Shown: positions 1 through 39,004 of the stretch, in pieces
Numbering within the stretch: position 1 is the stretch's first letter
Layout: every line of letters begins with the position of its first letter
NCBI GenBank assembly: GCA_964342815.1
Contig: CAYFHS010000003.1
Coordinates: 32,001-96,000 of the forward strand
Source: an uncultured archaeon
GTDB lineage: Archaea > Thermoplasmatota > Penumbrarchaeia > JASLWR01
Direction of reading: 5' to 3'
DNA: 64,000 nt
Translations under genes and position numbers: made by a program
The notes under the pieces: generated by a model
Told to the model about the DNA's origin: nothing
Database searches by the model: none
The model's input: only the letters and a program-made list of their open reading frames with translations

Positions 1-32
1 ACCGGAATTAATTACGATTAACTTTTAAACTT

Positions 33-755
33 ATGGAAGGAACGAGCATGGACGCCGGTAGTGTGATCCAATATATCTTATCGGGTAATAATGAATTCGT
101 CGAGTCACGCTGCGGGGATTATTTCCTTCAGCACATGAATGGACAAAATCCTTTCATCACGCTCATTAGCTGTTCGGATTCCAGGGTGCAGCCAAGCGTC
201 CTACTTCCCGATGCCGTGGACAAAATATTCGCCATTGAAAACATCGGTAACCAGATATCCACGGCAGAAGGGTCTGTCGATTACGGCATATATCATCTCA
301 AAACCCCCGTACTGCTTGTACTTGGTCATTCCGACTGCGGGGCGGTAAAAGCAGTTATGGCGGGATACGGGGAAGAACCGAGGCCGATAAAGGACGAACT
401 TGACCGCCTGAAGCAGGCCATTTCACTTGTGAGGTCACCACCTGACAAGTTAGGCGAGCCATCAGGGTCGCCTTTACCAACGGATATGGAAAGCTATCCC
501 CGAAAGATGCTTCTGAACAATATTATTAAGAACGTGGACTACCAGGTTGGAGTCGGAATTGAAAAATACGGCGAGCTCGTGCGCGACGGAAGCCTGACGG
601 TAGTGGGGGCGTTCTACGATTTCAGGAACGAACTTGGTGAAGGATACGGGCGGTTGATCATCATCAATGTCAACGGAGAGACCGATAGCAGCAAGATCGA
701 AAGCTCACCGGTGTTTGCCGATCCGGAAAATGATCTCATTTTCCAAGTAGTCTGA
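33..755 (+). CDS. beta-class carbonic anhydrase
   Basis: Zn-binding motifs CSDSR and HSDCGAV, plus IENIGNQ and GSVDYG segments typical of beta-CA. The start may be the ATG at 48. Confidence 0.92.
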   Translation: MEGTSMDAGSVIQYILSGNNEFVESRCGDYFLQHMNGQNPFITLISCSDSRVQPSVLLPDAVDKIFAIENIGNQISTAEGSVDYGIYHLKTPVLLVLGHSDCGAVKAVMAGYGEEPRPIKDELDRLKQAISLVRSPPDKLGEPSGSPLPTDMESYPRKMLLNNIIKNVDYQVGVGIEKYGELVRDGSLTVVGAFYDFRNELGEGYGRLIIINVNGETDSSKIESSPVFADPENDLIFQVV

Positions 756-790
756 TGAATTAATAATTAAAAAAGGATGCGAGATGCACA

Positions 791-1210
791 ATGAACCTTG
801 TTGAGACCGAGAACGCGCCCCAATGCAAGATAGAAACGGCGGTGGAATACGCCAGGAAAAGAAAGAGGCTGCATCGGAACTGCGAGCGCTGTTATTTCAT
901 ACACATTTATCTGGATCGAAATAATCGGAGCATCCGAGAGCTGAAAAGATTTCTCGGCGAAAGAAATTTCAAGGCCGATTTTTCGCACAAACCCATTGTT
1001 TCTATCAGGTGCGACGAGCTGGAGCTGGACGAGCTGTACAACGAGTATCTTCTGTGCACTGAAGAACCCTACTCGGTACACTGCAAGATAATATGGAAAG
1101 TGGCCTGTCCCCGCCTGAGAAAGGAATGTCCGAGACTGTTCAGGTCACAACAGGATCTATCCTACGAGACTGAAACGGGATCGGTTGCACAGCTGGAAGA
1201 ATTTTTGTAG
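791..1210 (+). CDS. hypothetical Cys-rich protein (139 aa)
   Basis: ATG-started ORF 35 nt after the carbonic anhydrase on the same strand, filling the gap before the convergent giant gene. Contains CERC and several other Cys. No family recognised. Confidence 0.6.
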   Translation: MNLVETENAPQCKIETAVEYARKRKRLHRNCERCYFIHIYLDRNNRSIRELKRFLGERNFKADFSHKPIVSIRCDELELDELYNEYLLCTEEPYSVHCKIIWKVACPRLRKECPRLFRSQQDLSYETETGSVAQLEEFL

Positions 1211-1289
1211 TAAATATCATAGAATTCAACAATAAGATTGCATTTCACCAATGGAAATCAGCATATCGACTTGGGACTATTTCCACGCC

Positions 1290-4200
1290 CTACAAACTCT
1301 TAATAACCGCCTTCGATTTACAGTACGGGCATACCGCCACCGCCGGGGTTTTGGCGATCTTTGCCACATAGCTTTTAGAGCATTTCGGGCAGGTAAGTTT
1401 TACCTTCTTGGGTTTCGGGGCCTCCTCCGCTGCCGGCTCGGGAGCTGGTTCTTCCGGGGCCTCCGGCGCTATCTCTTCCGCGTCCTCGAGACCCTCCTTC
1501 AGCTCGGTGGCCATCTTGATGGCCTTTTCGAACTGACCCTTCTTGTACAGTTTCGTCGCATCTGATAGAAGTCCCTGAGCCGTCTTCACGATCCCTGGAT
1601 CGATCTTGTCCTTTCTGTCGTTGAAGGTAAACACCGCGTCCTCGAGAACCATCTTCGCTATGGACATGCGCCGCACGTTGATCTTCTTCTTCATTTTCTT
1701 CATCAAGCCTTCAAGAAGCGCCTTCGCATCCTCGAACTCCTCGTTTTCCACCATGCCCCCCACCTTCTGAAGCTCTTCGAGCTCTGCAGCCACGTCCGCT
1801 GCGATTCCCTCTGCAGTTTCCCCGTATTTGATTGCTTCCTGTTGCAGCTCGTCCACCTCGTCCCGGATCTTCATCTTGGCCTTCAGATCGTCTATGGTCC
1901 CTTTGAACAGTTCGTGTTTCTCTTCCATCAGGTCGAATTCTTCGGCATGGAAATGGTCCCGGATCTCGTCCACCGCATTGACTATCATTTCTTTGTACTG
2001 ATCGCTGAACAGATCATTCGACTCCAGTTCATCCAGGAAATCCTCCAGTTCATCCAGCAGGTCCCGGAGAACATCCTTTCTCCTATGGCCCCATATGGCG
2101 CGAACGCTAACCCTCAAGCGGCTGCTTTTATCGTGGGCACTTACGTAATCTTCGTCATCCATGGCATTCAATATCTCCGAGAACAGTTCCTCCTCTTCGT
2201 TCACCTCGACTCCCTTCTCCCGCAGCCGATCCATTATCCGATCGATCTCCTTGATGTTCTCCTTGGCCTCTGGTTTTATCTTGTCCTCGAAAAGACTGCT
2301 TACGAAAGCTTCCAGCTCCTTCATGGTAGCCTCCAATTCGTCCATGGATTCATCCTCGAGCTGTTCTTTGGCAGCCGTAACCAGCTCGGTACCGGTGGAA
2401 ACATCGATATCAAGTTTAGTAATGGATGAAAGCTGCGTTTCCATGTCGTTGATCCCTATGGTGTGCTTTTCGATTGCCCACTGTTTTTCGTATTCACCCT
2501 TCATATCGTAGTACGCCTCGATCTTGCGCTCCATCTCTTCGGCGTCTCCTTCCGTGCTTGCGTTCAGTGCTTCGTCCAGAAGCGATTCCAGCTCATCGTA
2601 ATCACCAATGGCGGTCATCTTGTACTCGTTGAAATCCGCAAAGGCCAGCTCCAGCTTCGAGGTGGCCTTTTCTTTTTTCTGGATGCCTATCTTCTCCTCT
2701 ATAGCAGCTCTGAGGGGTTCTATCAGTTTCATAGCACCGAGATACCGGCCCTCCTGATTCAGCGTCTCAATGGAAATGAGGCTCATGGATTCATCCTCCA
2801 TATCCGCCCCTTCCTCCTCTGCTGCCTCGATAAGCCCGGACATCTCACGAATGTGCTGGGGAATTACCTCGATGAGCTTTACCTCGATCTGCTCTTTCAC
2901 CTGGGCGTTGAGCTTCTCCGTAAGCTCCATGGCATCTGCAAGACGCCTGCTCTCCAAATAACGCTCGGCCCGGCTTATCCCGTCTTCCATGACGCCTATG
3001 TCGATGCCCAGTTCACCGCAGTCCACCATCAGCATCTCAGTGTTCCGCAGCATTATCCGTATTTTCCCCTCATCCACACCCTCCCGCTTTTCCCGAGCCG
3101 ATCCTATTGCCCTCTTCGCAAGATCGTCCGCTATGACGTAATTTCCATCCTGGAAAGCCGAGATGGCCTTGAAAATATAGGCTTCGATCTCGAATATGTC
3201 GAATCCCATCTCTTTGGTCGACTCCAGTTCCTCTTTCGCCCTGGTGATATTGGCTTCCACTTCCCCAATGGCCCTATTTTCCCGGTTCTCATCCAGCAAG
3301 GTCTGGATCTCGCCCAGCAGTACCATGCACCCCTCGGGATTCCCTGCGGCCAGATTGTCTTTTGCCCTTCCCATCAATTCCTCGAAAGCTGACATGTCCT
3401 CTATGATTTCCCGGTTCTCTTTCACAACCTGCTCTGTTTCCGATAGAAGGCCCTGCGCCTTTTCCATTAGCAGTTCCCCCACCGTCCCGATCAGACTCTC
3501 ATGCACTTCGAGAAGCGTGGTTATGGCTCCCTCGAGGTCCCCTTCTTCCTTGCGGGTCACAGCTTCCTCGTAACCTTTTTCCTCCTCGCTTACCTCGATT
3601 CCGTTCTCCTTTCCGCGAGCGATGAGATCCCCCGCCTCTTTTACCAGAGACCGGAACTCGTCTTCCAGCTTGATCTTTGCCATCAGCCCCTCGAGTATCT
3701 CCCGGAGATCCCCGAGCTTATCCTCCGCCACCAGGAACTCTCCGCTGTCGAAAAGCTCATGGACCTCTGCCACCTTGCCCCTGATATCCGCCTTGTATTC
3801 CTCTGAGAGATACGGTTTGGTATCCAAAACGCCTATGAACGAGTCGAACTCCTTCAACTGTGAACCGACCCGGGTCTCCGCTCTTGATAGCTTTACTGTG
3901 CGAACCATTTCTTCCATCCGGTTAACTGTAACTACTGTCTCATTGTATTTCCCCTCGTCGAAATGAGCCTGGGCTTTTATCATGTCACCCTCCAGTTCCT
4001 CTGTGTCCATCCCCGCCTCCTCTGCCTCGGCAATGAAATCCATGGCTCTGGTCAGTCTTTCCGTTGCAAGCTCCATGAGGTCTTCCTGCTCAAGTGCAAG
4101 GATCATGGACCTTGCTTCCTCCACGTGCTCGATGCAGCTTATGAACTCCCCTTTCCCGTTCTCCTCCACAGCCTTCTCTACCAGTTCCGCAACCCCGCCG

Positions 4201-7200
4201 AGTTCAAGTGGTCCACCGCTCTTTTCCTCCATAGCCGCTCGGATCTCTTCAAGAGCTATCCGAGCATTTTCCTCAAGTGAGTTCTGCCACACTTCAGTCA
4301 GGAGACTTCTGGCCTTCTCCGCCAGTTCCATAGATTTCTCGAATTTCTTCCTCTTTAGGAGGGCTCTTGCCTCGAAAGCGAGCTTCCTGCTGTCTCGAAT
4401 ATCCAATTTTTTCTGTGAGGCCTGCCGGACGATCCGGTCCACGTCTGCAAGGACGCTTCCGATCCCGGTCTTAAAGAATTCCTGACGTTTTTGCCCCAGA
4501 CGCTCTTCCACCCTCAGCATCAACTGGATACCTTTTACGTAGTTCTCTTCTTTAAGTGCAACCAGTACCTTCCTGAACAGCGTTTCTTCCTCGGTCAGGT
4601 CCACTTCTCTTTCTTTCAGGTATTTGAAGGATATTTTCAGGCTTGTGATGTGCTGTTTCGCGATATCTTTCGCAGGTGCTTTTCCAGCATCATTTATGAT
4701 CTCCAGGACCTGGTTCCGGAGTTCTCTCGCCGGCTCGAGCTGCCCCTCGCCAATGTTCTCTTTGATACTGTTGACCAGTTCCTCGGCAACCGCCAGAACG
4801 ATACCTATCTCATTGAAGGCCATAAGCTCTTTCGCAAGCCGTTCGACCTCCTTCGGATAGGCATCAATAAGTACGTTGGAGTACTTTTCCTCGGCCGTAA
4901 AGAACTCTTCAAGGAAACTTTCAGCACTCTCGAAGTCGCTGGAGTCCGAGGCAGCCGTTGCCGATGACAACAGGTCCTTAAGCTCGGTTATATCCATATC
5001 CAATCCCGGCATCTCCAGGATCTCCTTCTCCAGAACCGTCACCTTGTCCATAGCCCGGACCAACCTGTCTCCGCCCGCTCTCCTTCGGTAAAGATGTATC
5101 TTGTTAGCCAAGGAGGTTTCAATACCTTTCACCGTGCTCATGGCCTCATAATATTTTCCCAAATCCTTCAGTCGTTCAACTCGGGCAAGGACGGATGTGT
5201 CCTCCCGGATGTCAAGATTCAGTTCACGCGCCGTATCCATGAGGGGAGAAAGTTTTACCATTTCAGCCCGGATATCACTCTTCAATCTAGCATTCAGAGA
5301 CTGTCGTACCGTACCCTGCGTTTCTTTGGCCACCTCTCGGGCCTCCCTGAACCGACCCTGGCCGAAATGCTCTTCCATTTCCCCCAGCGCTTGCCGGGCG
5401 AAGGACACTTCCAGATCCAGTTTCTCAGCTTCTTCCACCATGGCTCGTACGTTTTCTATCTCCGCCGACGCATTATTTCTGGAATACTCATTCTGGGCGG
5501 TAAGAAGGGCAGATTTCGCTTCTCCAGCATACTTTGCCGATCTTTCAAAATTGCCTTTTTCGAGATTTCTTTTTGCATTGGCAACCATGTCCTCCACGGC
5601 AACCATGTCAACCTCCAGTTCCATCTCGTCTATCATGAGTTCCTGTACGACACCGAGGGCGGCGGTGGTGAAATCCCTGTAATGATGCTGCTTGGCCGTT
5701 TGGAACATTTCCTTTGCCTGGCTTGCATGTTCCGCAGCCAACTGGAAATCCCCATTCTCAAAATGATGTTGACCCTCTGCCAGCTTGCTCTCCATCACTG
5801 CAGTGTCAAGACCCAGTTCGCCACCTTCACCCAGAAGCGTTCTGGTCTCTGCTAGCAGTTCGGACACGTCTTCCGTGAAGTGGCGGTCCCTCTGGGCAAT
5901 AAGGCTTTCATGGGCCTTCTTCGTCAGTTGGATGGCGGCTATGAAATCCTGATCCTTTATGGCGCCAACAACGTCCTTTAGCATCTCATCCTCTCGGGAA
6001 GTATCTATCCCATCTGCCTTCATCTCCCCGAAAAGTTTTTTTATTTCCACGATGTGCCGCTTGGCGAGCTCTCGGGCATCCACCGTCTTGGCATGCTTCA
6101 CATAATCTTCCAAATGCGGGATATTTTCCTCTATGGAGGCGATATCGTTTTCTTGAACCCCTTCCATTATTATGGACAGAAGTTCAAGTCCCTTCGATGC
6201 ATCCAGACCCAACTCTCCGAGTTGGATCACACTATCGCTGAGCTCTTCAATCCGGTCCTGGAAATCCTTGACCTTCATCTCTCCCAGATACTGCTCGATC
6301 ACAACATCGAATTGTCTGAGTAAAGCATCGGCAGCATCTAGATTTTTATTTCCCACTGCCTCCTGGCTCGACAGCAGCATCCCCTTCAGGTCACTCAGAT
6401 CCTGACCAAGGGTTTTTTCCAGTTCCTCGAGAGTTGAGATCTTTTCGCTGATCTTGCGGGTTGTAGCCTCTTCCTGCATATTCTCGATCTCTTCGAGTAC
6501 GGACATCTTAAGTTTTATTAGAGTCGAAACAGCCTCAGTATAGTTGCCCGCTTTTTTCAATTCCTCGATGCCAGCTAGCTGGTTCCTTTCGTTGTCGGTG
6601 TCAGCTCCCGTTTCTTGGAACTGTGCCAGAATTCCTGAAAACTCTTCATATTCCGCCTCATAACTTACCTGTAATTTCGTGTTTATCTTTTCGGTCAGTT
6701 CCGATCTGGAAGCAATGGCGAGCGCATAGCTCACCTCCAGCTCGCCCTCCTTCAGTGATTCCTGCGCCATGGCGATCTTTTCCTCGATGGGACCAAGGTC
6801 CAGGCCCATCTCCGAACTTTCACCCATCATATTCCAAACAGCAGATATTAGAGCGGAAGTATCCCTCTTCAGATATTTTTCTTCGGCTTCGGAAAGTAAT
6901 TTAGCAGCCTCTTCGGCATCGTTAAAGGCTTCTTCAAAAGAACCTTCTTCGAAGCTTGTCTGGGCATTTATCAATATTTCTTCTGCTGAACTGAGTTCCA
7001 GACCGAGCTCTCCGCACCTGGTGTGAACAATCTTCGCTGTCTCGATAGCTTTTGCGGCTCGTTCTCTCAACGAATCCCCACGGCTTCGTGAAATTTCTCC
7101 TGCAACTTCCTCTATCAGGACATAAGCTTCTCTTATCATTGAATCGTTAAAGAGTGAAGTGGCATTCGCGAACTTCTCTTCCACAACCGCAGTTGGGACT

Positions 7201-10200
7201 CCCAGAGATTTCAGATCAAACAGCATTCTCTCCGCAAGCTCCGCAGTTGCCAGGTATTTCTCGCGGAAATGTTCGTCAAATACTGCATCAAGATTCACTT
7301 TTGCCTCTTTTGCCAGGTTTGAAGCCTCTTCCAGTTTCCCCTCACTAAGCTCCGCGTGTGCGTTCCCGACAATGTCCTCCACCGCCGCGACATCCAGACC
7401 CAATTCCTTTGCCTCTGCAAGGCGGTTTGCTGTGTCCTCCAGCAGAAGGTCGGCGTTGCTCTCCAAGTGCTTCTTTCTGGAATCGGACAATCTCTTCTTG
7501 ACCTGTACGGCAGCGTGGCAGGCGGACACGAAATCCCTTGCTTTCACGGCGCCCAGTACTTCGCTGAAAATCTCACCGTTGGACTCCATCTCCACTCCCA
7601 GTCCTTTGACCTCAACGAGAAGGGTTTTGGCTTCTCCGAGATGTACCTTTGCTATTTCCTTGGCCTGGACATTTGCCGCGGATTCCTTGAAGTCGCCAAG
7701 TCGCGATATGATATCCTCCATAATGCCAAAGCGGTTTTCCGAGATGCTCGACCTTGCCTCGGAGATCATGCCAATCCCCGGGGAAATATCAAGACCCACT
7801 TCCCGGTAGCTTTCGAAGATCTCCTGAAATCCGTCCAGTTCATCCTGATATTTGCGTGCCAGCAGTATGTTGCTTTGATCCTCTCTCATATGGGAGAAAG
7901 AATCGAGATGCTCCTCGAGAGCCGCATGATCCTCGGCCGTTATCGCCTCTCTCGCCTTAATGAGATGGGCCCCAAGAGCCTCGGATTCATCCCCCGTCAT
8001 CTCCTGGAACTGTTTGAAAGCCAATTCCGCTTCTGATAGCTTTTGAGCATTCTTGAGTCCCATACCTTCCTTATGTTTGTTTGAAAGTGATATACCGACC
8101 GCTCCCACCAGCTCTACCGCCTCTCCATACCGCCCCTCTTCTCTGAGAACTGACACGGGTCCCAATCGTTCCAGTTCATCTCGGACCTCCATCCCGAATT
8201 CCATTGATCTTTGTACTATTTGGTTTACTTCATCTGTCTTCTCTGCAAGGATGTCTTCCCATCTCAGACGTATTCTCTCTCGTACAAGAGCGACTGCTCT
8301 ACCTACAATATCATGAGACTCCCCGTAATTCTCCTCCACAAGAAGATTGCGGCCGGTCTCCATCATACTGAGCACGTCGTCCAGATCGATCCCGCCCATT
8401 TCTTCGGCCTCGTGAATTAGTTTGTCCAATTCCGCGAGAGTACTGTGCGCTCGCTCTTCATAGTATGCATCGAGAGCAGCGGATACCACCTTTCGGCTTT
8501 CGAGGAGAAGCTCACAACCTGTCAGGAAGTCACTGTTCTTGATGGAAATAACTGCCTGACGGAAGGTCCCCTCCACATCTCCCGCTTCCACCCCCGATTC
8601 CTTCATATCGGTCATCAATTTCTTTGTCTCGGCAAAAAGTGTTCGAGCCATCTCTTTCGCACCCTCGCCCCTCGCCTCATCCAGCAGTTTTTCCACCACT
8701 GCCAAACCTTCGCCGGTTCGCCCCAGGTTCTCCGAAGAGATGTCATTTCTTATTCCGGCGATGAATTCTGCAGCCTCGGTCAGCTCGATACCAACTGAAG
8801 CCAGCCGTGTCATATCTTCCTCAAGCACTATGAGCCTGCTGCTGTATGAGTCGCTCATGTACTCCCTCTTGGAGGATTCCAGGTCGGCATGGAACGATTC
8901 AAGTATGGAGTTTACTGCGGTGTGATCGCTTTCTAGAAGTGCTTTTGATGCTGTTTCCAGGTGTCCATGAAGTTCTTCGTAAACCTTCCCGGTCATTTCT
9001 TCCAGGTCAGCCAGTGACCGGGCCGAAACATCGATCTTTTCGAGGTTGTCTGTGCGGTTCATGTCTTCGGTCTTTTCCAGCAGGGAACGCTTTACTTCAC
9101 CAATGATTCCAAGGGCCTCCTGGAATTTCCACCCGTCCTTAAGGGCTTCGATCTCGGATATTCTGGAGGACTCTTCATCAATATCTATGGACATGGCCCG
9201 TACCTCTTCCAACACCGGCTCCAGTAAAGTGAGTTCGGACACCACGGTCTCCCACCGTTTCTTTCCTATCCTTACCCCCAGCTCGTCAATTATGAGCATG
9301 GAGTTTTCTAGGGCTGCATCGAACAGGCCCTCGTCATATGCGGCTCTTGCCTCCGATTCGGATGGTTGAAGATCGGAAACGTCGATTTCCAGTTCAATGG
9401 CTTCGGACATGCTTGCATGGAGATCTTTGATAGCCCGAGATGACTGTTCGGTGTGATATTTCGTCTCTGCCGCATTTAGTTTTGATTTTATATTGATAAG
9501 AATACGGCAGGCATCGGTGAATCTCTCCTCAACCACGTGGGTCCGCACCTCGCGGAAAAGAGCTTTCTCCTCCTGGAGATCGACTCCATGATCGCCCAGG
9601 TATGAGAATAATTTCATAGCCTCCCCTGCGTGTTTCTTGGCGAGTTTTCTTGCAGTAACGGTCCTTCCCTCGTGAACGATGCTTTCAAGTTTCCCAAGAA
9701 TTGTTTCCGCAGCTTCAAATCTCTGGAAGTTCAGTTCCGAGCCAACATTTGCGAGGAGTTCTTCGGTTGCGGTAACATCGATGCCTGCATCACCAAGTGC
9801 GGTGACTTCGCCCGTAAGCATATCAAGGCGTTGGTAATAGGCGGAAAGAGCAGCTTTTCTTTTGCTCTCCTTTAATAACTCTTCGAATTCGTCTATTTTG
9901 CTGTCAACCGCTACGTGATCTCCCACCTCAATTGCCTCGCGGGCGGCATTGAGGGCAGCCTCCATACCAGGATGCTCCTCACTCGTCTCGCTGGTGTGTT
10001 CATCCAATTTCGCCATTGCGTCGGATAGTCTTCGAGAATTAATCTCACTCCTGCTAAGGTCTATTTTCTCCGTGATAGATTCCCTGATCTCCCGGCCCAA
10101 AGTTATTATCTCATTGTAAGCGCCGTCGTTCCTCAGCTGGTTCATACGTGCAAACCGACCCTCATGTTCGCCAACGTCCACTGAGTACTTCCCGGCCTCC

Positions 10201-13200
10201 CTCATCAAGCTCTCGATTGCGGCGATCTCGGAATCAGCTCCCTCCAGTTCTTTCCCCCCAATCATTTCAACAAGGGTTTCCCTGGCCTGATCGATGAGTT
10301 CCTGTGCGCTCTCGTACTCCCCGTCCTCGAAATGGATATTGGCGTATTCCAGCATTGTTTCGATAGAAACAGTATCAAGGCCAAGCTCCACAGATTTTTC
10401 CATCAGCTTTCTTGCGGTTTCAAATGAGGTAGTGGTTATCTCCTCTATACGCGTTTTCTTTGTAGACAGGAAAAGGTCGTTGGTCTCACGGGCCATGCGT
10501 TCGGCCTCCTCCAGATTTCCTTCATTCACCAGGCCGTAGGCATCGGCTATTTCAACCGCCATGGAAGCGGTGTCGATACCCAGCTCAGCACCTTCCTTCA
10601 GGGCTTCCTCCACACCCTCGATCATAACAAATACACTTTTCTTGCGGTATTCTTCTTTTAGATATTCCGCCCTTTCCACCGTGGTCCGGGCTGTTTCTTC
10701 CGATTTGGGATAGTCTTTCCACTCGTAGAATACCCTCGCTTCACCCAGGGACTTCTCCACAGCTGCTGTTTCTACGTCCAATTTCCGGATCTCTTCAAGT
10801 GAATTTTCCGCAGCCGCCAGTGCTTCCTCGGCCCTTGATCTTTGATATTCCGTTTCCTTTTTCCTCAGCATCTCGGTGGCTCCGTCGGCCATCTTGCAGG
10901 CTTTTACGAAGTCACCCTCCTTGATTTTGGAAAGAACTTCCCCAAAGTGCTTCTTTTCTTCATCCAGTTCGAGATCCAGTTCCGTCAGTTTATCGAAGAG
11001 GCCCTTTGCCGTTGCGATCCTATCTCTCGCGGCATCCTTTGCAGTCACTTTCCGAGCATGCTCGATACCCTGATCTATAAGCACCAGAGTCTCCTCCAGG
11101 ACCTCGAAATCATGACTGGAGATGAGTTGCGATGCCTGCGATACCAGATCGAATATATCGGTCAGTTCGATACCTATCTCAGTTATCGCTGCAATTTCGG
11201 GTTCCCTTGAACGTAGATCAACGCGATAATTATCTGCCCTGCGGTCCCCTTCATATCCCGCCAAGGCCTCGTCAAACATTCCAAGGTGCTCTTTGGCTCC
11301 CTCGTAGTCGTTATCTTCAAGCGACATTGTGGCGTTCTCGATGAAACCTTCAAGATCAGGATAATCCTTTTCGGTAATCTCCATAAAGGCGCCGAGGTTT
11401 TCCTTGGCAGTTATCACAGCCTGCTCTGTCAATTCCCTTGTGCGGCCACGCATGGCTTCGTCCAGAGCAGGCCTTTCATTCCGGAGGAGATCGATGGCTT
11501 TGCGAAGATCCCCCGCTTGCTGACACTCTCCAGCCATGGCCAGGGCGTCTGTTACATTATCCAGAACCAGATCCAATTTACGGGCTGCTTCCAATCCGGA
11601 CTCCATTTGAGCTCTTTCATCATCCAAAATTTCTTTCAGTCTGACATTCAGCATCTCCCGAAGTGCTGCGGCTGTGGCCCGTGAAAGCGTAAATGCCTGA
11701 GGATATAATTTCTCTTCCAGAAATTCCCGGGCCTCCTTGCTGCTTTCAAGAATTTCGTCAAGGGATAGATCCACCTCTCTCGCCTCGATGATGAAATAGT
11801 CCACTTTTTCAAGTTCCGACTCGGTTGCTTCAACATAGTAATTTTTCCGTTTTTCAACAAGCAGTTTTTCCGATCGTTGGGTCAATCCAGCGCCCTTTAC
11901 AAACTCACCCGCTTTGATGTCGGTTATGGCTTCTCTGAACAGCCGGTTCTCTTCTTCCAGGTCCACACCTGTCTCCTTCAGCTCTGCAATCAGCTCTTTT
12001 GCCCGGATGAAATGTTTCTTCGCAAGTTTCTTGGCTTCCACTGAACTTGCTCGATCAATAACGGTTTCTATATCCGACAGTTTGGTCTCGATCCCTTTAA
12101 ACACGAAAGTTTCTGCATTCTCTTTTGCTATCCTTAGTAAATCATGGACATTTTCAAGAGAAAGACCAATGTTCTCGAGCTCACCGACCTCTTTCTCCAT
12201 TTCCTCCAATCTGGCGGCATATCCTTCGGCCATGTGGCGGTTATTGTGTCCTTCCTTCGCCTCCAAGAACTCATCTATGAACCCCTCCATCGCCTCGTAA
12301 TCCTCCCTGTTAAGAGCGGCCCCGGCCGAATCCAGAAGAGAATCCAGGTCCTGGTAGGCTCCACCGGTTTCCTCCTTGAACGATTCTAGTGAATCCATGA
12401 TCTCCCGAAGTTTTTCAGTGTTCAGCTCCCGCCGCCGGTCTCCAACGCTATTTGCAACAGAATCATAGCACTCTTTCAGTACGATGAGAATCTCCGGATA
12501 CCGTTTTTCCGTTCTCAGGTCCATTGTGGCGGAGAGTCGTTCCCTCTCAGCCTTCATATCGACACCAAGGCCAACTCCTTCTTCCATGACCCTTGCAAGC
12601 TCCCCGGTCCGCTCTTCTATGACCGTAAGATATCGTTTCTCCATGGTGCTTTCGAGCGTCGAAATGGTGTCCCCCGCCAGTTCTTCAGCCTCGTCGAATT
12701 TCTCGCTGTCGAAGCTGCTTTTCAGCTGGGCAAGGTTTCTTTCAGGGACGCTTACGTCCATATCCAGTTCTCCAGCCTCGGAGATCAGATTCTGAAGCCG
12801 GTCCATGGAGCCCGTCAACATCTCTTGCTGGAATTCCTTTCGTTTTTCATCATACTCCTGCTTTGCCTGGCCCACCATCAGGAGTGCGTTGTCGAAATCC
12901 TCTTCCTCGAAATGCTCCATTGCCTTTGAATGTATCTTTTCTATTGAAATCACGTCGGTGATACGCTTTCCTGCATCTCCCAGCATTCCCTCCAGGCTCT
13001 GGATGGCCGCCACGGCTTTATTTCTAGAATGATCCTTTTTCACTCCGTCAAGTTTCTCCCGCACCGAACGGGTCAACTGTATACTTTTCAGGAAATCGCG
13101 GGTCTTGATGGCACCAAGTATCTCCCGAAAAACAGCTTCTTCGCTGGTAAGATCGATTCCGAGCCTCTTCAATTTGGTCAGCAGTTTGTTCGTTTCCGTG

Positions 13201-16200
13201 AAGTTGGATTTTGCTATCTGTTTCGCTTTCACAGACTTGGCTTCATCTATGATCCCGTCCAGTTCGTCCATGACCGCCTTGGCATCCTCGAATCTCTCCT
13301 CGTTGATGGCTACTCTTGCGGTCCCGGAAAGCTCGTCGGTATCGGCTAGTTCGATACCCACGTCCCTTATCGCACCCAGCTCTTCTTCTATTCCTCCAAT
13401 TCTCTCGTTATGTACTTTCATGAGATGTGAGATATAGAGCATTTCTCTTGCTTTATCGAATTCCATTAACGAAGGAACCAGGTCAGTGTAGTTCTTTTCA
13501 ACCAGCATTTCTTTGGCTTCGTCAAGCTGGGAATGCAGGTCAGGATAGTTTACCCCAGTTTCAAATTCCAATTCCTCCAGCGCTTCCTTTGCTCCCTCGA
13601 ATCTTTCCTCATTCATTTCAAAGGTTCTCTCTTCGATCTTAACTATGGCTGATGATATTGCATTTTCCAGCAGTGAGATAATTTCTCGGTATCGTTCTTT
13701 CTCCCTCAGCCGGTCCGCTTCCGCAAGACTTACCTTCTCCGCCTCAATATTGGCATCGATCTTCAGTGCTTCCGCGGCAATGCTCTCGAACTTATCCGCT
13801 TTCCCTTCGATAATAACCAGAAGCTCGGTGTTGATGGCGGCCTGAAGCCCTAAACTGCATTCCAAAGCCAAGCCGTGAGCTTCCTCGAATTCCCCATCCT
13901 CGTAACTCTCTCTCACCCTCTCATCCAGCTCGGTAAATGCCGTCACGTTTAGCTCCAGTTCGGCTGCTTCGCCCATGAATTTTTTAATATTGTTCACTGT
14001 CTCTTCGGTACTCCCTCTGTAATACTCTTTGCGGGCTTCAGCCATGGACTCCCCAGCTTCAAGGAACAGCTGACATGCTGAAACGAAATCCCTGCCCTTT
14101 ATTGAAGCGATAGCCTTCTTGAACAATATATCGAACTCCTCCACCACAAGGTCCAATTCCTTCAATTCCCCGAGAACTGACTTTGTTGAGAGGAAATGTT
14201 TTTTCGCCAGGTTTTTGGCACCTACGTTTCTTACCTCCAATAGACCTTCCCGGATACTAGCTATATCATCGATGACCATTTCGAATTCGTATGATTCCAT
14301 ATGTTCTCGGGTCGTACCTACCAATTCCTCCACGGAACTTAGATCCAATCCCAGCTCAGCCAGGGGCGGCACCTCGCCCTCCAGTTCTTCGATCTCACCC
14401 TTATATTTTGTGAAGAGGTATTTTCGATTTTCATCCTCCTTGGTGGTCCGGAACCGTTCAAGTAATTCTTCGAAGACGGTATAGTCCTTTTCTTCCAATG
14501 CTTTCCCCGCGGAGGCTGCCAATTCATCGAGATCAGGATACTCGCCGCCAGTCTCTTCTGAGAAATTTTCCAGAGATTCCATGGTCTCCTCCAGTTTTCC
14601 CGCATTGACCTCTGCAATCTTCAATTCGTACTTTTGCTTGGTGGCACTCCGCAGTTGCCCAACTCTGATAATACAATCCCTGTAACTGCCTTCCGCCCTC
14701 ATATTCTCCACGGAGGTCAATCCATCTTCTTCCTCCCGTATGTCCGTCTCAATTCCACGGGCACTATCCATTTCTTCCTCAAGCCCTGTGATCTCGTCAT
14801 TAAGACGTGTGATCTGTTCCCCGTCGATTTCTCTCCGGAGTTCTCGCATTGAGTTCTCGCTCAGCTCTTGAGCCTCCTGAAACTCTTTCTGATCGTATAA
14901 TGAACGTATATTTCTAAGATCGTCCTTTACAGCGGAAATATCCACCTCGAACTCGGAGGCTTCTCCGATCATTGTTTTCAGTTTTTTGAGTACTGCGTCG
15001 GTGTTCTCCTTGAAATGCGCTTGCCGCAGCAGATGATAATCCTTTCGTCCCTGTTCCGCCATGTCTATTGCCCGCTCGTAATGTCCTTCGTCAAAAAGGG
15101 AGGCGGTAAGGCCACGGGTTTCCTGTATCTTTCCAGTGTCCAGTCCCAGTTCGTTCCCTTCTACCAACACCTCATCGAGCTGGGCAAGGCTCCTCTGCCC
15201 TTTCTCCATGAAATGATCCCTTCGCTGGGCAGAGTATTTCTCCTCGGCCTCCCGCGTAAGTTCCATCACCCTTTCATGATCTCCCTCCTGGAAGTATGAT
15301 TCGGCATCGGCGATCAAGGTCTCAACGTCTTGCATATCCAGTTCAAGTTCATACCCCTCTTTTGTTTTATCCCGGACCTTCTCAAGAGCATCCTCGGCCC
15401 TCTTTTTCCAGTACGCCGTCCTCCTTTCCTTGAAATCCGAACGAGCGGCATCCACTGATTGAATTGATTTCTCATAATCGGCCTCGTCGTATTCATCCTC
15501 GGCCCTTTCAAGACATTCATGGATGAACTCCAGGTCCAGGTCCACCCCTTCTATCACCATGTCCTTTGACCACTCCAGCTCCTCCTCCGCCCTCTCCTTG
15601 TAATATTGCTCCCGGGCATTCTCGGCCATCTCCACAGCCTGCCTCGTCAGGCGGCAGGCGGTAACGAAGTCCTTGGATTTGATGGCTGCAATAGCACGCT
15701 GGAAGGCTTTGTTCTCTTCTTCCAACTTAAGCTCTTTCCCCTTCAGTTCCGTTAGAAGTTTCTTTGTTTTAATAAAATGATTTTTGGCAAGTTCTTTCGC
15801 CTGCTCCGTTTTAGCGTTCTCTATTTGCTCTTCGATCTTTTCGAGGGTTGCCTCGGTTTCCGTAAAATCGAAATTATCAACGTTCTCTTTCACTGTTTCA
15901 AGGAGTTCAATTGCGGGCGTAAGGGTCAGCCCCAATTCTTTAAGTTCTTCCGACTCGCGAAGGAGCTCTTTAGCCTTCTTATCGTATCTATCCGCCAGAT
16001 ATTGCTGGTAATGATCAGCCTTGGCTTTACGGAATTCCTGGATAATGGAATCCTGGCTGCTGTAATCCACCTCGTTGAAAGCATTTTCCGCCGATTCGAG
16101 GAATTCCCACAGATCGTCGTAATTCATATCGGTCTCTTCCTCAAGAGCTTCAAGTTCCTCCCGGACCTTTCCCACTTTTTCGGAATTGATCTCTTTCATT

Positions 16201-19200
16201 TTTGCAGCAATTTTTTCCTCGATGGATTTCATGCTGTGGTCCAATAAATCGATAATGTCGTTGTATTTCTTTTGCTGCTTCAGTTCTTCCACATTCTGAA
16301 GTCCCTGGCGCTCGGGCACGACATCCACATCCAAACCAAGGGCTTCGTCCATTATTTTTGCCAAAACCTCGGCTTTCTTTCCTATGTTCTCCAGTAATTT
16401 TTCCTCAATTGAAGCTGCAAGATCTGAGTTGGCGCCCTCTGATTTTTCCAGCATATCCTCATAACTCTCCTCGTCATAATCCCGCTTCATTTCGCTCAGG
16501 ATATCCTGGAACTCATCCACATCTATCCACAGCTCGCCGGCCTGGGTCAACATCGATTTCATCAATTCCATGGATTTTGAAGCCTTTTCCCGGAAATATT
16601 CACACCTATCTTTCGCGTAGCTTGATCGTGCCTCTTCGATCAGCTTGAAAGCTTCCTCGTAATCCTCTTCTTCGTAACACTTCATGGCCTCTTCATGAAG
16701 TTCTTCCACCCTGGTCACGTCGATTTCCAATTCACGGCCTTCGTCCATGGAAGCCTCAACGTTCCCAATGATCTGTGAGGATTTTTCCCGGTAATGATCG
16801 CGTTTGGCATTCAATAAACCCGCTCTTGCTTCCAGAGTAAGTCGAATACCAGTCACATAATCTCGGTTTCTTACCGCCACCAGTACTTCCTTGAAGATCT
16901 TGTTCTCTCTTTTCACGTCCACTGCCAGTTTTTTCATTTCAGTGAAAAGTTTGTTTGTGACACCTATGACCTCTTTGGCCCGCATCTTTGCCTTTACGTC
17001 CCTTGCTTCTGTGATCTCATGTTCCAGTTCGGTCAATCCTTCCGTTACAGCGTTGAAATCACGGTCCTCTATGCTTTCCCGAACTTCACTTGATATCCCT
17101 GCGGTCTTCATGTCCACCCCGAGTTTTGAAAGGTCTTCCGCAACAGCATCCAGCTCATCGATCTTTGCTGTATATTTCCCCACCAGATAAACGGCATTGT
17201 GTTCAGTCCTTGCATCCGCGAACTCCGCCAGAATAGCATCCAGTTCGTCGTATTCAATGCCTTCAAGCGCTTTTCGGGCTTCATCCAGCATCCCCCGCAG
17301 ATCCCCATAGTCATTCCCGGTTTCTTCTTTCAGCTCATCAAGTTCGGCCGCAGCATCATCCAGCTTATCGGAATTTATTTCAGCGAGGCGCGCAGCAATC
17401 TGTTGTTCCGCCAGAACCCTGATGTCCACGATCTGCTCCAGAGCCTTTCGATATTCTCTTTCGTCCCTTAATTCATCAACTGCCGACAGCCTTGCGATTC
17501 CTTCGGTCATGTCCGCCCCCAGTCCCTTACCTTTGTTTATAAGGGAGCTCAGAGCATCTTTACCCTGCGATATAAGCTCCAGGTATCTGTTTGTTATCTT
17601 ATCCGTGAGATCCACCATAATTTTCTCAGCCATTTTCCACGATTTAAGGTATTTTCCCTGGTCGAAGAATTCGTTAGCCTCGTTAATTTCCTCTTCCAGC
17701 TCGGAAAAATCGATAGCGAGACCGGCTTCCACCTCCATTAGATTCTCCACCTCATCCATGGTCCTGGTTGCATTCTCTTTCTCGTAGGCTTTCCTACCTT
17801 CCTCGGCCTTTTCCTTTGCCGCATTCATGGAGTTGTTGGCGTTTTCCAGCTCGCCCTTTTCGGTGAAGTACTTCGATTTGTAGAACAATCCCTCGGCCTT
17901 CGATGTATCTATATCCAGTTTCTCGTTTTCAGAGATGTATTCCCAGAGCCGGTCGAGAGCCGCTTCCAGTTCTTCCCGGTGTGACTTCTCCCTGCTGAGC
18001 TCCATGGAACTCATCAGGTCTTCAGAAAGCGATTGGGCCTCATCGAATTTTCTTCCGTCAATCAGCTCCTGGATCTCGGAAATACGGGTTTCCACCATAT
18101 CCTTGTCTCTCAGGGTTTCACGATAGATCTCGAAGGTCTCGCCGGCTTTCTCAAACGAGGTAACTGCCTTTTTCTCATTCAATTCCTCGATCTTTTCCAA
18201 AAGGTAGCTCCGGGTGTCCTCCAGAAGTGCGAAGAGCTCCTGGTACTTCCCTTCGCCGAGCAGCTCACCCGCCTCATTCATGTCCTTTTCATCATCCTCA
18301 ACATCTATATCCAGCCCCCTAGCCTCTTCTAACAGTTTTTCCAGCTCGGTCATCTTTGAGCGGGCATCCTTTGTCTTTTCAATGTCCAGTTTTGTGTTAT
18401 TTTCCAGTTCTTTGAATTCATCGATCAGTTTAAGAAATTCATCGGTTTTCCTCGCTTCCAGTGCCTCTTCGGCGTCCTCAAGCACCCTTCCCATATCCTT
18501 TGCGTACAGATCTGGAAAATCATCTAATTGACGGAGGCTTTCGATAAATTCCCTGGCCTTTTTAATTGTTAAAGAATGTTCCTCGCTCTGGCGCTCCAGC
18601 CGTAATTTTTCACAAAGATCACGTACCTCTGATGAGATGCTTGTGCCCTTTATGAAGTCACCCTGCCTCATTGCCCTCCTTGCCTGTCTAAGAAGCTGCC
18701 TGCTATCTGTTACATCAATATTCAGTACCAGGGTTTCTTCGACAATCTCCTCTGCCTGACCGAAATTTTCCCATGCCAGATCTCGAATCTTCACCCGTCG
18801 TATGTCTTTCATGATATCACTAAGGCGTGCCAAACCTTCCTTCGCATCGTCCAAACGCTTTTCTGTTAACGCCTCATCCACTTCCTCCAAAATCTTCCTT
18901 GGAACCGAAACGTCCAGCCCCACTCCTTCGAACTCATCCAACTGGCTCTCAAACTCGTTTATCTCGCTAGAATACTTTTTCTGAGATAGACTCCTAACAA
19001 ATCTCTCTTTGCTGGTGTGAAAATCTTCCAGTATCTTTGTAAAACCCTTTCTATTTCCTTTGGCTAATGCTTTATCCGCTTTCTCCATGAGCGTGTTTAA
19101 GTCATCCGACTCGAGCCCCGCGGTCTTCTCAAGATTCTCCAATCCTTCACGAGCGTTATCTAGAGCCCTTTGATCATTCTTTTTCTCGATGGAGGAAATT

Positions 19201-22200
19201 GCTTCCAGTAGAACTTTGGTGGCTTCTTCGTATCTTCCTTCCTCCTTCATCTTTCTGAGGCCGGATAAGATCCTGGAATCGTTCCTTGTGTCCACCCCAA
19301 GTTTTTCGGCTCCTTTTAGAAGCGTAATCACCTTTTTTCCCTGCAATTCCATCTTCTCCTTGAAGGTGGAATCTATAAGAATAGTGAGTGCTTCTTTCGT
19401 TTTACCGGCAATGGTGGAGGCTCTATCAAATTCACCGTTTTTGTAGGCTTCTTCTGCTTGTTCCATTATGAGCTTATGTTCATCCACCTCCAGCCATAGT
19501 CCCACGGCCTTTTCCATCAACCCCGTTGTTCCTTTCAACAATACGAAAACCTCTGCTTTCCTGAATTCGTCTTTGGCTCTTGCCAGTATTACACTTATCT
19601 CTTCCTGTCTTGCCTCTTCCGCAAAACCCTCCGCTTCCGAAATCAGGCTTTCCAGGACATCTGTTGGAAGATCATTGCTTTCCGCCTCACCCTTAATGGC
19701 TCTTATTTCGTCCACGAGCACTGCTGCTGCGCTTTTATCGAGAGCCATTCTGCTCTTCATAGCGCCATCCAGGGCCATTGTGGCGTATTTTTTCCCATTT
19801 TCGTAGTCCCGTTTCTCCAGATAATAGGTTGCCTTGTAATATATCGCTTCCACCCGTGCCGTGTCACCATCCAGTTCCTGGGTCTCTTGAATGAGCTTGT
19901 CCGAACTGCGCAACAATTCCCTAATCTCCTGCTCCCACTGCTCCAATCTCGTTCCCTCGATCTCTTTGAGAATACTTTGTGACAGTTCCAAGGATTTTTC
20001 GTATTCCTCGGCATCCAGATCTTGCTGTGCTCGGTCAAGTTGTGAAGCTATCAAGCTGTGGTCTTCCAGGATATCCCTGTACTCTTCGAACCTCTCCGTA
20101 GCATCATGGAGCAATGCCCTGCATTCATCACGCTGACGGAGGTCGAGCTTGCTCAACATTGACTCGTAAACTTCTTTCAGAAGCGGGATAGTCTCATCAA
20201 GCTCATAATTGTTCAGTAATTCGTCGATATCGTCCAGAATATCGTTCTCGGCCTCGATATCTATTGATAATTCTGACGCACTTTGTGTAAGGTCATTTAC
20301 TTTTTCCATTAACACAACGATCTCGCCGGCCTTTTTCTTCTCACCTACCATTTCCTCTTCGGCATCGGTCAGTTCACTCAAAGATCTCTGGGCTTCATCA
20401 AGCTCGTTTGATTCCAGGCTGGTTTCAACCGTTTCCATTATACTTTTTAATTCATTCACTCTTTCCGGTGCAATATGGGGATGGTCCTTTATAATTTGGA
20501 ACAGGTCTTTGGCTTCCTTTAGCCTGGTTCCAACCTCTTTTGCAGTATAGCGCTTGTCCTTTTTCAACAATAATTTTCTGCTCTTTATGGCAAGTTTGCA
20601 AGCTTTCAGGTAATCATCGCCCTTAATGGCATGAACAATCTCATTGAAGAGTTCCTTGTCCGTATCCAGTTCGGTTCCCCGCTCTATCAATCTCTTGAAC
20701 AACATATTGATCTCTTTTACTATCAGTCCAGTCCTCTTTTTAACCCGTTTAGTAATAATATCTCCGTATAGCGGTTCCAGTTCCGATAATGTTTCTTCCA
20801 GATCATCGAAAAGTTCTTCCGAAAGGAGCGTTTCCGCTTTCTCAATCAGGGGGACTGCATCATTGAGGTCGATTCCGAGAGAATTGAGGGATTCCACCCC
20901 ATTTTTTAGTTTTTGGACCTTCGCCGTATAATTTTCCCTTTTATAGTCGGCATCGTAACCGCCTTTTATCCGGTAAAAATCATTGAGTATACTGCCCATT
21001 TTGTCGTAATCCCCGTCATCCAGGGCCGAAGATACCATGTCCAGAAGTCCCCCTAGATCTTCAAACTGCCTTCCTGTCGCTTTCTCGAGAGCCAACAGCT
21101 CATCCTCTGCCTTTTCGAGCAGCTTTTCATTTGCCGAAACTTCGTGGTCTTCCAACTTCTTTTCAAGAGTTCTTTTTAATTCCTTCATAATTTCTATCGC
21201 TTCATCATACTCCTTCGCATCCCTCAGCTTCTCTATCTCATACATCCCTTTCATTTCATCGGAAATGTCCATCTTCATCTCACGGGCTTTCTCAGACAGG
21301 GCTGCTAGTTCATCGTATCTGAATTGATATATTTCCATTTGTTTTTCATTTAGCATCCTGGCAAGTCCAGTCCTGGCCTCCAAGGACAGTTCCTTTGCAC
21401 CAACGTAATCCCCATCTGCAAAAAGGCTTTTAGCCTTGTCCGCTTTTTCTGGAAAATCACCAGTATCAAGCCACAATTCCGTGGCCTTGGACTGTAGTAC
21501 TTTCACATCGTCGAGTAGCTTTGAGACTATCTTCTTCCGAGCTCCAGTTCTTAAATCGACCAATCCCCTTTCCACTTCCTGGGCCAAACGATAAGCTTCG
21601 AGATTATCGCTGGTGGCGAAAGCTTCCCTGGCTTTCTCCATGGTGACTTCAAGTTCCTCCACATCGATTCCCTTTTCCTTCATCCGTTCCAGGAGGTTTC
21701 CGCTGGTTTCCATTTGATCTGTGGCCAATTTTCCTGCCCGGTCCCCCTTTGCTTCACTGATAACTGCATCCAGTTCGGCGATACTGGCATCCACCCGCTC
21801 AAAATCTTTCGCGGATATGCTCTTTCTAGCTTCGGATATGACTTCTCCCACGTCGGTGAGATCAATGTTCATTTGGGTTATTGCGTCAATTTCCGATTCC
21901 CTTTGTTCCAGGTCCCGATCGTATTTGGCGATCCGTAACTCAAGCTTTTGCTGGTCCCAGGCTTCATTGAAACGGTCCAGATTTGATTCCACTTCATCAT
22001 AATCTTCTTTTTCCAGAGCATCAAAGGCCAAGTCACGGAACTCCTGCATGTCCGGGAAGGCCATCCGGGCCTCCTTTTGAAAAAGCGTGAGTTCTCTTGA
22101 TGCCCTGCGCAGCCTCTGAGTACAGTTCCTTCTCCTCCGTATCCTCATCCCTTCATTGAGAGATTTCTTATGCTTCTTTATTGTGTTGATGGCTGCGATA

Positions 22201-23123: not shown

Positions 23124-23341
23124 TTCGGTCTGTTGGGTGACTTTGAGAGTTATGGGTGGGATTATTATGATGGGTCAGTCACTATTGAATTATTGGCGAG
23201 AAGCTGGAATCCTCATAGTAGTTATAATCTCCTAGAGATTAGCCTACTATCGGGTAATTCTGCTCTATTACCAATATAATATAATAATATGCGGTAGATT
23301 ATTCCAAGATAGATAACAATTTATAACAAAAATCTCTCGAA

Positions 23342-23362
23342 TATATTTTAAATTAAAATATA
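23342..23362. promoter_or_regulatory. perfect 9-bp inverted repeat TATATTTTA-AAT-TAAAATATA in the divergent intergenic region; possible operator
   Basis: Seen directly. The region is AT-rich, so chance occurrence is possible. Confidence 0.3.
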
Positions 23363-23464
23363 ATTGACTGGATTATACCGGCGGAAACACAGCATAAATT
23401 ATAAATATGCCAGATTTGTTAATTTGGATCAATTTTTTCCATGGCAAAAGCGACTTTCAGAACC

Positions 23465-23472
23465 TTAATATA
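23465..23472 (+). promoter_or_regulatory. candidate archaeal TATA box for endA
   Basis: TTAATATA about 31 nt upstream of the endA ATG. Confidence 0.4.
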
Positions 23473-23503
23473 AAGAATTCCACAAAGATCAATCGGTGAA
23501 ATC

Positions 23504-31928: not shown

Positions 31929-32172
31929 TAATATCAGCACGCTCATAGAACTGGTTCCTCAAAGGAAACCCTGGAGCATCTAGTACGGATTTATTAATCC
32001 TGCGCAATCATGGCCAGTGAGCTAAAGTGAGTGGATTTGTTCCCACGGGGATGGTTCCACCTGCTGTAAAATATGATAAATGCTGGTGAAATAAGGTGAA
32101 TCTATATATATCATAAATGGAATTAAACGGCCAATAATGTCTCTAAATATATCTTTATAGGAAGTGGAGTTA

Positions 32173-36492: not shown

Positions 36493-36508
36493 TCCCGTAA
36501 AGACGGGA
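36493..36508 (+). terminator. short hairpin TCCCGT-AAAG-ACGGGA immediately after the stop codon; possible terminator or 3' stability element
   Basis: Perfect 6-bp stem. No clear U-tract follows. Confidence 0.25.
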
Positions 36509-36703
36509 ACAAAGTGACCGTCTTCTTGGTAAAGACGTGCCCGCTTTGCTCCGCAACACTCAAGTGTTGCTGCACCCTCGGCAAGTATGCCTACGGGTGC
36601 CAGAATGGGTCGGCTTTACACGGCAATAAAAACTGATTCCGCGCCCGGAAATCCGGTTTGCCGCTAGTAAAAAGGAGGAGATCCCATCTCTCTCGAAGAT
36701 GAA

Positions 36704-37399: not shown

Positions 37400-37415
37400 G
37401 GAGAGGGGAAATATC

Positions 37416-37727
37416 ATGCCAAGCCGAAAAAAAAGTTCGATAGATGACATACTTAAGGACGAAAGCGCCATAATCAAGGACATGGTGGAAAAGAAAAAGG
37501 GGAAAAAGAAGCACAAAGATAACAAAAAGAAGGACAAGGGTACGAGAATAATACAGCACAAACACTGCATTGTATGTTTCAAGGCCATAGGGCTTGGCCG
37601 GGATTACTGCTCCGACGAGTGCAAGGAGATACATGTCGCAAAGATAAAGAGGCAGAAGAGAATGATGTATATCATGTACGGCGTTCTAGCCGTGGTTTTC
37701 GTTCTTGTGGTCCTTACGAATCGTTAG
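37416..37727 (+). CDS. DUF2116-like Zn-finger membrane protein
   Basis: HKHCIVCFKAI...YCSDEC motif followed by a C-terminal TM helix. Basic N-terminus. Confidence 0.8.
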   Translation: MPSRKKSSIDDILKDESAIIKDMVEKKKGKKKHKDNKKKDKGTRIIQHKHCIVCFKAIGLGRDYCSDECKEIHVAKIKRQKRMMYIMYGVLAVVFVLVVLTNR

Positions 37728-37822
37728 ATCGTCATCAACAATTGATCCATCCTAAGCTTTTTTTTTCACGAGTGGTAGTATTTTCTCTATTACGGGTGAG
37801 AAGGTTGAAGGTAAGAAGCGAG

Positions 37823-38275: not shown

Positions 38276-38389
38276 GTTTATAAGCAAGATTTTTTAGTAA
38301 TTCCAGATGAAGAATTTAGAGAAGTAAAGTGATCGAATGTCATTATGATCTGATATTTTCTTACACTTTGTGCCAGAAATAATAAATAG

Positions 38390-38984: not shown

Positions 38985-39004
38985 AAATTGATCAACTACT
39001 TAGT

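Follow-up and report, generated by a model that had tools for sequence, protein, structure and literature searches.

Spectrin-type proteins are cytoplasmic chains of antiparallel three-helix bundles, arranged head to tail with a continuous helix at each junction and lacking a catalytic domain; such chains are regarded as eukaryotic, with EzrA, which forms a semicircle, representing the single bacterial case (PMC4243239). Their bundles span about 100-106 amino acids (aa), and number five in EzrA and 4-20 in the spectrins (PMC4243239). Strings of small three-helix bundles that share helices also occur in two secreted, wall-anchored bacterial adhesins, Ebh of S. aureus (2dgj) and BibA, in the latter case within the N-terminal domain (6poo). 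In Ebh, two bundle types alternate within a super-unit of 126 aa, and the molecule is estimated to be ~0.3 micrometre long. The giant proteins nebulin and titin arrange simple repeats in super-repeats of constant length (7 or 11 modules) that are matched to a periodic partner filament, and the classic view of them is as molecular rulers, with binding sites spaced at set intervals. Large cytoskeletal scaffolds are, to our knowledge, not known from archaea other than the Asgard group. Here we describe a gene in a 64,000-nt stretch of DNA (hereafter the window; contig CAYFHS010000003.1 of assembly GCA_964342815.1) from an uncultured archaeon of the Thermoplasmatota. The gene encodes a giant protein composed of tandem units of about 66 aa, among which four specialised types recur in a fixed order at irregular though conserved distances.

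Like spectrin and EzrA, the giant protein appears to be a cytoplasmic, head-to-tail chain of antiparallel three-helix bundles with continuous-helix junctions and no catalytic domain. However, its bundles comprise only 66 aa and number 108, no sequence similarity to these proteins was found, and it has a zinc-ribbon tail but no transmembrane anchor or actin-binding head. In contrast to Ebh and BibA, no signal peptide, membrane segment or wall anchor was found in its sequence, and those adhesins have no equivalent of its four-type module with variable spacers. It differs from nebulin and titin in the irregular spacing of its nodes (5-12 units), and is unrelated to them in fold, organism and sequence.

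Results

The gene lies in an open reading frame (ORF) at positions 1290-23123 of the window, on the minus strand, which is uninterrupted over 7277 codons when counted from a GTG; the database protein begins at an ATG three codons inside this frame and is thus 7274 aa long. Autocorrelation of the protein with the BLOSUM62 matrix gives its highest peak at a lag of 66 aa (z = 28 relative to shuffled sequences), with further peaks at 331 (z 21), 132 (18), 397 (16), 463 (14) and 265 aa (13) and additional block periods of 652 and 1255 aa. The 108 units into which the array was divided (Table 1) are mostly 66 aa (79 units) or 67 aa (18) long, the others measuring 70 (three), 59 (two), 65 (two) and 64, 68, 71 or 73 aa (one each). 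Within the unit, glycine and proline concentrate at phases 20 and 40, and the phasing of hydrophobic residues resembles a heptad. At the DNA level, neither Tandem Repeats Finder nor a direct-repeat search detected a 198-bp repeat in the gene, so that nothing at this level could drive slippage, and both recent expansion and an assembly artefact can be rejected. This, together with the open 7277-codon frame and the existence of full-length or near full-length orthologues in independent assemblies, establishes the gene as real.

Clustering of the units and type-specific hidden Markov models (HMMs) distinguish four specialised unit types, which always follow one another in the order C-D-B-E and are separated by one to eight generic (g) units, giving the string gggCDB(e)gCDBEggggggCDBEgggggCDBEggCDBEggggCDBEgCDBEggCDBEgCDBEgggCDBEgCDBEgCDBEggggCDBEgggCDBEggggggggCDBEggg. 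Mean similarity within types is 0.186, as compared with 0.063 +/- 0.004 in 2000 label permutations (maximum 0.08). The C-D-B-E module measures about 265 aa and is present 14-15 times. Between the 14 E units identified by type HMMs, every distance corresponds to a whole number of units (Table 1), and the recurrent value of 331 aa equals 5 x 66 + 1 because the D unit is 67 aa long. A preliminary description of this DNA, which took E as a marker on the basis of an AK..AK.H motif that we find to span the continuous helix linking B to E, had claimed a periodicity of ~66 aa, integer marker spacings, and four fixed unit types accompanied by a variable number of generic ones. Each of these claims is upheld: the periodicity by the autocorrelation and the 108 tandem units, the types and their order by the clustering, and the spacings by two series, in aa and in units, that are identical to those reported. 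The limits given for the repeat, 2265 and 20732, fall within the last and first marker units, respectively.

The array contains a second recurring element, made up of a 70-aa unit and, behind it, a unit of 67 aa (or 71 aa in the last of the pairs) whose first loop contains proline (e.g. DHPHIAPERV). Four such pairs are located at 20328-20738, 18372-18782, 3864-4274 and 1869-2273 (units 11-12, 21-22, 95-96 and 104-105), three of them immediately following a C-D-B part.

Structures were predicted with AlphaFold2 for residues 3103-3499 (C-D-B-E-g-g), with the protein's 13 other segments in the same register as the alignment, and for residues 730-1130 (B-E, the proline-loop unit and generic units), yielding predicted local distance difference test (pLDDT) values of 91.6 and 92.5, respectively. 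The modelled unit consists of a helix of ~18 residues, a loop, a helix of ~15 residues, a three-residue turn, and a helix of 40-45 residues that enters the next unit. Each unit is therefore predicted with high confidence to form a small three-helix bundle whose third helix runs without interruption into the following bundle, where it serves as the first. The two models contain ten inter-unit junctions, among them C-D, D-B, B-E, E-g and that with the proline-loop unit after E, and every one is a continuous helix of this kind (pLDDT ~90). The unit after residue 865 is still a three-helix bundle in the model, with a second helix of 19 residues. The models agree with the phases of glycine, proline and hydrophobic residues, which supports a chain of three-helix bundles joined by continuous helices. 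With an advance of ~3 nm per bundle, calculated by subtracting the return helix of 15 residues from the forward helix of 44, the chain would be ~0.3 micrometre long.

Single units superpose on solved three-helix bundles with Z of 8-11 and a root-mean-square deviation of 1.4-2.3 A. Over several units, the best match was to EzrA (4uy3_A, Z 11.8; 4uxv, Z 8.3), which was also the sole named lead in a language-model atlas (0.82); BibA matched over 236 residues (6poo, Z 9.0) and EbhA over 223 (2dgj_B, Z 7.0). With Foldseek, nothing in the PDB matched at E <= 0.001, and the best hit in a profile search of PDB sequences reached an E of only 0.0057. No family in Pfam or NCBIfam scored above its cut-off for the giant protein. 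The Pfam scans covered both protein halves (E <= 0.1) and 14 segments, the first of which, of 397 aa, was searched at E <= 1. Spectrin (PF00435) matched neither half nor the first segment and was absent from the 25 families most shared among the 14 segments; EzrA (PF06160) likewise gave no match, and the N-terminal membrane anchor that this family would entail finds no hydrophobic segment here. MIT models (PF04212 and relatives) did not reach threshold, the closest being NRBF2_MIT (E 0.023 in one of 14 segments), and no MIT chain appears among the 50 structural matches listed. FIVAR and GA gave no match at threshold, with FIMAH remaining sub-threshold (E 0.031 in three of 14 segments). We found no description of a 66-aa-repeat family in the literature on giant, spectrin-like or cytoskeletal proteins in Thermoplasmatota.

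Orthologues of the giant protein measure 7274 aa (74% identity), 7274 aa (43%), 7400 aa (72%), 7686 aa (33%) and, in genome G003, ~7006 aa. The 7400-aa protein starts mid-unit and was probably cut at its contig end. When the giant protein was used as the query in a locus search, the sole match was the 74% orthologue, which originates from the Thermoplasmatota metagenome-assembled genome ETNP2_MAG_1 (eastern tropical North Pacific). The series of E spacings is unchanged in the orthologues at 74% (P0003) and 43% identity (P0005), and all length differences amount to whole units (+6, +10, -2 and -2). Orthologue P0004 carries a tandem duplication of six units, node included, with 77% identity between the copies; P0006 is longer by ten units at that position, and two losses of two units each are common to G003 and P0006. 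In a tree of C-D-B-E modules, the modules group with their positional orthologues, support being 93-100% wherever the four orthologues are all represented, and thus all duplications in the window's protein predate these lineages. The spacing is quantised and evolvable in the long term, but fixed within the orthologue group. The preliminary description had seen in the array a modular ruler made tunable by gain or loss of whole units, and had suggested a unit phylogeny as a check. Whole-unit gain and loss is borne out by the orthologue unit counts, and the idea of a ruler holds in that the nodes are an integer number of units apart. Free adjustment of these distances does not stand, as they are mostly frozen: the irregular series survives divergence to 43% identity, and the module tree sorts modules by position.

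A conserved operon partner was also considered and was rejected for the pair formed by the window and G003, as a tblastn search of the G003 contig with six neighbouring window proteins returned nothing.

The giant protein is strongly acidic (16% Glu, 7% Asp), with a net charge of -646, but this charge is unevenly distributed among unit types. Mean net charge per unit is about +1 for E (range -5 to +8), as compared with -4 for C, -9.5 for D, -8 for B and -7 for generic units, and each of the five orthologues examined shows the contrast (E +0.4 to +1.9, other types -3 to -9.5). The conserved basic residues of E, mostly lysine, are located at positions 4, 11, 18, 32 and 39 and are thus mostly seven apart; this ladder occupies phases that are hydrophobic in only 20% of units, corresponding to non-core positions. 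Among the orthologues, E is the best-conserved type and B the least conserved. Identity in E units is 47% versus ~39% in other units in P0005 and 42% versus ~30% in P0006, the difference in conservation being significant by Mann-Whitney test (p = 0.028 for P0003, 0.007 for P0005 and 0.0003 for P0006). That the marker unit is both the best conserved and distinct in charge fits a binding site. A complex prediction combining a C-D-B-E module with the zinc-ribbon tail scored 0.00, which speaks neither for nor against binding.

Both ends of the protein lie outside the repeat. The N-terminal motif follows the pattern RKRETI...WLTR[DE]QIA..IQEMMAAGNT and has a net charge of +3, and the C-terminal zinc ribbon is conserved far better than the rod in the orthologue alignment. 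The cysteine spacing of this ribbon is the same as that in the C-terminal tails of two surface proteins encoded in the window. No hydrophobic window of 19 residues occurs in the 7274-aa protein (maximum Kyte-Doolittle mean 1.42), and its N-terminus is charged. Because of these features and the tail spacing held in common with the surface proteins, the giant protein is most likely cytoplasmic.

With tandem units that match the unit profile, the giant protein belongs to a family of 66-aa-repeat proteins of the Thermoplasmatota. A genome-wide scan of ORFs with the unit HMM gave 104 matches on the giant's frame and 44, 20, 18 and 17 on paralogous frames. Among 1.84 billion proteins, a profile of a six-unit segment retrieved 1180 cluster representatives at E <= 0.001; for 196, E was 1e-30 or lower. 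Family members range from a few hundred to 7686 aa, and the only genomes in which frames of at least 7000 aa were seen belong to the same family as that of the window (G000, G001 and G003). Of ten representatives looked up, two carry a source name, in both cases that of a hypothetical protein of Thermoplasmatota/Thermoplasmata, and the atlas agrees. At least one C-D-B-E module was present in 22 of the 159 proteins typed, most of the family being generic-only, and the higher-order grammar is therefore a sub-family feature. The module is reused with zero to eight spacers in same-genome paralogues and in relatives elsewhere (P0007 and P0009 included). A same-genome paralogue of 2448 aa (contig C12, 43854-51254) has 66-aa units of the same family but, unlike the giant, contains generic units only and no C-D-B-E.

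Further family members occur in gene clusters. On contig C35 of G000 (30243-45868, plus strand), a 3835-aa paralogue shows the C-D-B-E grammar. Its stop overlaps the ATG of the next gene (TAATG), which encodes a family member of 1389 aa with a long, basic tail rich in lysine, alanine and proline at its end. On contig C1 of the same genome (298814-310315, minus strand), three 66-aa-repeat genes (1480, 645 and 1707 aa) reuse C-D-B-E. These genes follow one another head to tail in a single reading frame, separated by single stops (TAG, TAA) that are preceded by a GAGG/GGAGG motif and followed by ATC ATG; every gene ends within a B-type unit, with a zinc ribbon at the end of the last. In another family of the same class, many genomes encode a protein of ~1765 aa (1764-1768 aa) with ~25 generic units and no C-D-B-E, as at loci L011 (G015:C43) and L014 (G035:C9). 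Distant relatives (P0039, P0072, P0061 and P0048) join the repeats to other domains, namely CARDB (E 9e-10), DUF5915 (E 2e-12), a prokaryotic RING finger (just under the cut-off) and a YfdX-like stretch. There are hints that parts of the family may have extracellular or other roles.

Along the giant gene, G+C content drops steadily from ~0.52 at the 3' end (2001-6000) to ~0.45 at the 5' end (20001-22000), and GC and AT skews on the plus strand are strongly negative throughout. An intergenic region of 380 bp (23124-23503) separates the gene from a divergently transcribed tRNA-splicing endonuclease gene, one of the neighbours that identify the DNA as archaeal. This region is very A+T-rich, has several TATA-like runs, and probably holds the promoters of both genes.

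Table 1. Features of the giant gene, with positions in the window. Distances are from the previous E unit.
Feature	Position	Strand	Residues	E unit	Distance, aa (units)	Remarks
Whole gene	1290-23114	minus				7274 aa from ATG, plus stop codon
N-terminal basic conserved non-repeat motif	22923-23114	minus	4-67			Orthologue alignment
Array of 108 tandem 66/67-aa units	1461-22922	minus	68-7221			Iterated unit HMM
Degenerate first C-D-B-(E) module	21534-22328	minus	266-530			Full CDBE in P0005, P0006 and G003
C-D-B-E module 1	20529-21335	minus	597-865	20529-20738
C-D-B-E module 2	18573-19358	minus	1256-1517	18573-18782	652 (10)
C-D-B-E module 3	16788-17579	minus	1849-2112	16788-16985	599 (9)
C-D-B-E module 4	15597-16391	minus	2245-2509	15597-15794	397 (6)
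C-D-B-E module 5	14016-14810	minus	2772-3036	14016-14213	527 (8)
C-D-B-E module 6	13023-13817	minus	3103-3367	13023-13220	331 (5)	AlphaFold2-modelled
C-D-B-E module 7	11832-12626	minus	3500-3764	11832-12029	397 (6)
C-D-B-E module 8	10839-11633	minus	3831-4095	10839-11036	331 (5)
C-D-B-E module 9	9450-10244	minus	4294-4558	9450-9647	463 (7)
C-D-B-E module 10	8457-9251	minus	4625-4889	8457-8654	331 (5)
C-D-B-E module 11	7461-8255	minus	4957-5221	7461-7658	332 (5)
C-D-B-E module 12	5874-6668	minus	5486-5750	5874-6071	529 (8)
C-D-B-E module 13	4470-5279	minus	5949-6218	4470-4667	468 (7)
C-D-B-E module 14	2076-2870	minus	6752-7016	2076-2273	798 (12)
Acidic proline-rich flexible linker	1407-1460	minus	7222-7239			Length differs among orthologues
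C-terminal basic four-cysteine zinc ribbon	1293-1406	minus				CxxC-x16-CxxC

Discussion

The reading that we favour, at about even odds, is that the giant protein is a cytoplasmic scaffold rod, in which the E-centred modules would act as recurrent docking surfaces and the generic bundles as spacers. Such a rod, very acidic and formed by 108 three-helix bundles, would present 14-15 docking nodes about 15-36 nm apart along its length, with the number of generic bundles setting the distance from one node to the next. The E-centred nodes would most likely bind an anionic or acidic partner, for which a protein tail, nucleic acid and lipid head groups are candidates, and the basic N-terminal motif and the basic zinc ribbon on its flexible linker could provide attachments at the two ends. 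Several points weigh against this proposal. The extra conservation of E is modest, as illustrated by the values for P0005 given above, and its basic residues could form intramolecular salt bridges rather than bind a ligand. The structural matches represent architecture and not homology, with Z values within the range expected of a common helical arrangement, and the length, straightness and surface exposure of the rod derive from secondary structure and heptad phase. In addition, the genes flanking the giant gene are not shared with G003.

It is possible, though on the whole unlikely, that the higher-order repeat is instead a fossil of block duplications, in which an ancestral five-unit block (C-D-B-E-g) and later blocks of six, nine and ten units were copied, so that unit types reflect descent and the protein is a uniform spacer or rod. 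The block periods in the autocorrelation (331, 397, 463, 652 and 1255 aa) are of the kind that such a history would leave, the tandem duplication in P0004 copied an entire block together with its node, all units have the same predicted fold, and the wider family consists mostly of generic-only proteins. However, copies that are now at 20-30% identity keep their type signatures in 14 modules, in five orthologues and in distant paralogues, and neutral decay would have erased such type-specific features, including the higher conservation and the opposite charge of E. These same basic nodes could alternatively bind a polyanion (chromosomal DNA, RNA or anionic lipids), together with the basic ends, such that the rod organises the nucleoid or the inner face of the membrane. 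The neutral to basic E units with their seven-residue ladder on a strongly acidic rod, the basic N-terminal motif and zinc-ribbon tail, and the lysine/alanine/proline-rich tail in the C35 paralogue operon, of a kind often seen on DNA-binding proteins, would all suit this role. We nonetheless judge it improbable, given the low net charge of E units (about +1 each), the repulsion of nucleic acid and anionic lipid to be expected from a rod at -646, and the failure of the Pfam and NCBIfam scans to detect any known DNA- or lipid-binding domain.

Two further alternatives concern the architecture of the chain, and we assign both a very small probability. The preliminary description had raised the possibility that the specialised modules are hinges, which might bend and thereby shape the rod. 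Spectrin-type chains can bend at their junctions, as in the semicircle of EzrA (PMC4243239), and some units adjacent to the marker have unusual lengths (70, 67, 59 and 73 aa) and proline-containing loops. Neither AlphaFold2 model contains a broken junction, however, and glycine and proline cluster only at the two turns within the bundle; the hinge reading is thus not supported. The array might also be viewed as a TPR-like solenoid of two-helix repeats rather than a series of discrete three-helix bundles, as the motif F..G.YEEA, which spans the second helix, the turn and the third helix, resembles the TPR signature. Sub-threshold matches point in the same direction, including ANAPC3 (E 4e-4), TPR_12 (E 0.15 in two of 14 segments) and PDB entries for TPR chains, whether designed or natural (E 0.03-3.7). 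Yet no TPR model (CL0020) reached its Pfam cut-off, with ANAPC3 scoring 21 bits versus the 27.2 required. The period is 66 aa, with helices of ~18, 15 and 22 residues of which the third is fused to the first of the next unit, and not the 34-aa pairing of TPRs; moreover, it is three-helix bundles and chains of them, not TPR solenoids, that were returned as structural matches.

A more specific version of the scaffold, in which the giant protein is an archaeal membrane-skeleton ruler of the spectrin/nebulin type, seems to us a distant prospect. The rod would then lie under the membrane and its E nodes would dock acidic cytoplasmic zinc-ribbon tails. If this were true, the docked tails would include those of the giant surface receptors encoded next door, and surface molecules would be held apart at distances that are integer multiples of one 3-nm bundle.

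The higher-order grammar, the charge pattern and the reading as a bundle chain appear to be new, and the protein looks like an undescribed spectrin-like scaffold. An uncultured marine lineage of Thermoplasmatota devotes 22 kb to this one chain of bundles, whose length could span much of a small cell and which belongs to a family of more than 1000 unannotated relatives. The conserved yet irregular spacing of a charged, well-conserved module leads to the testable hypothesis that docking sites are held at fixed distances, and the protein provides a clear case from nature in which length has changed during evolution by whole folded units alone.

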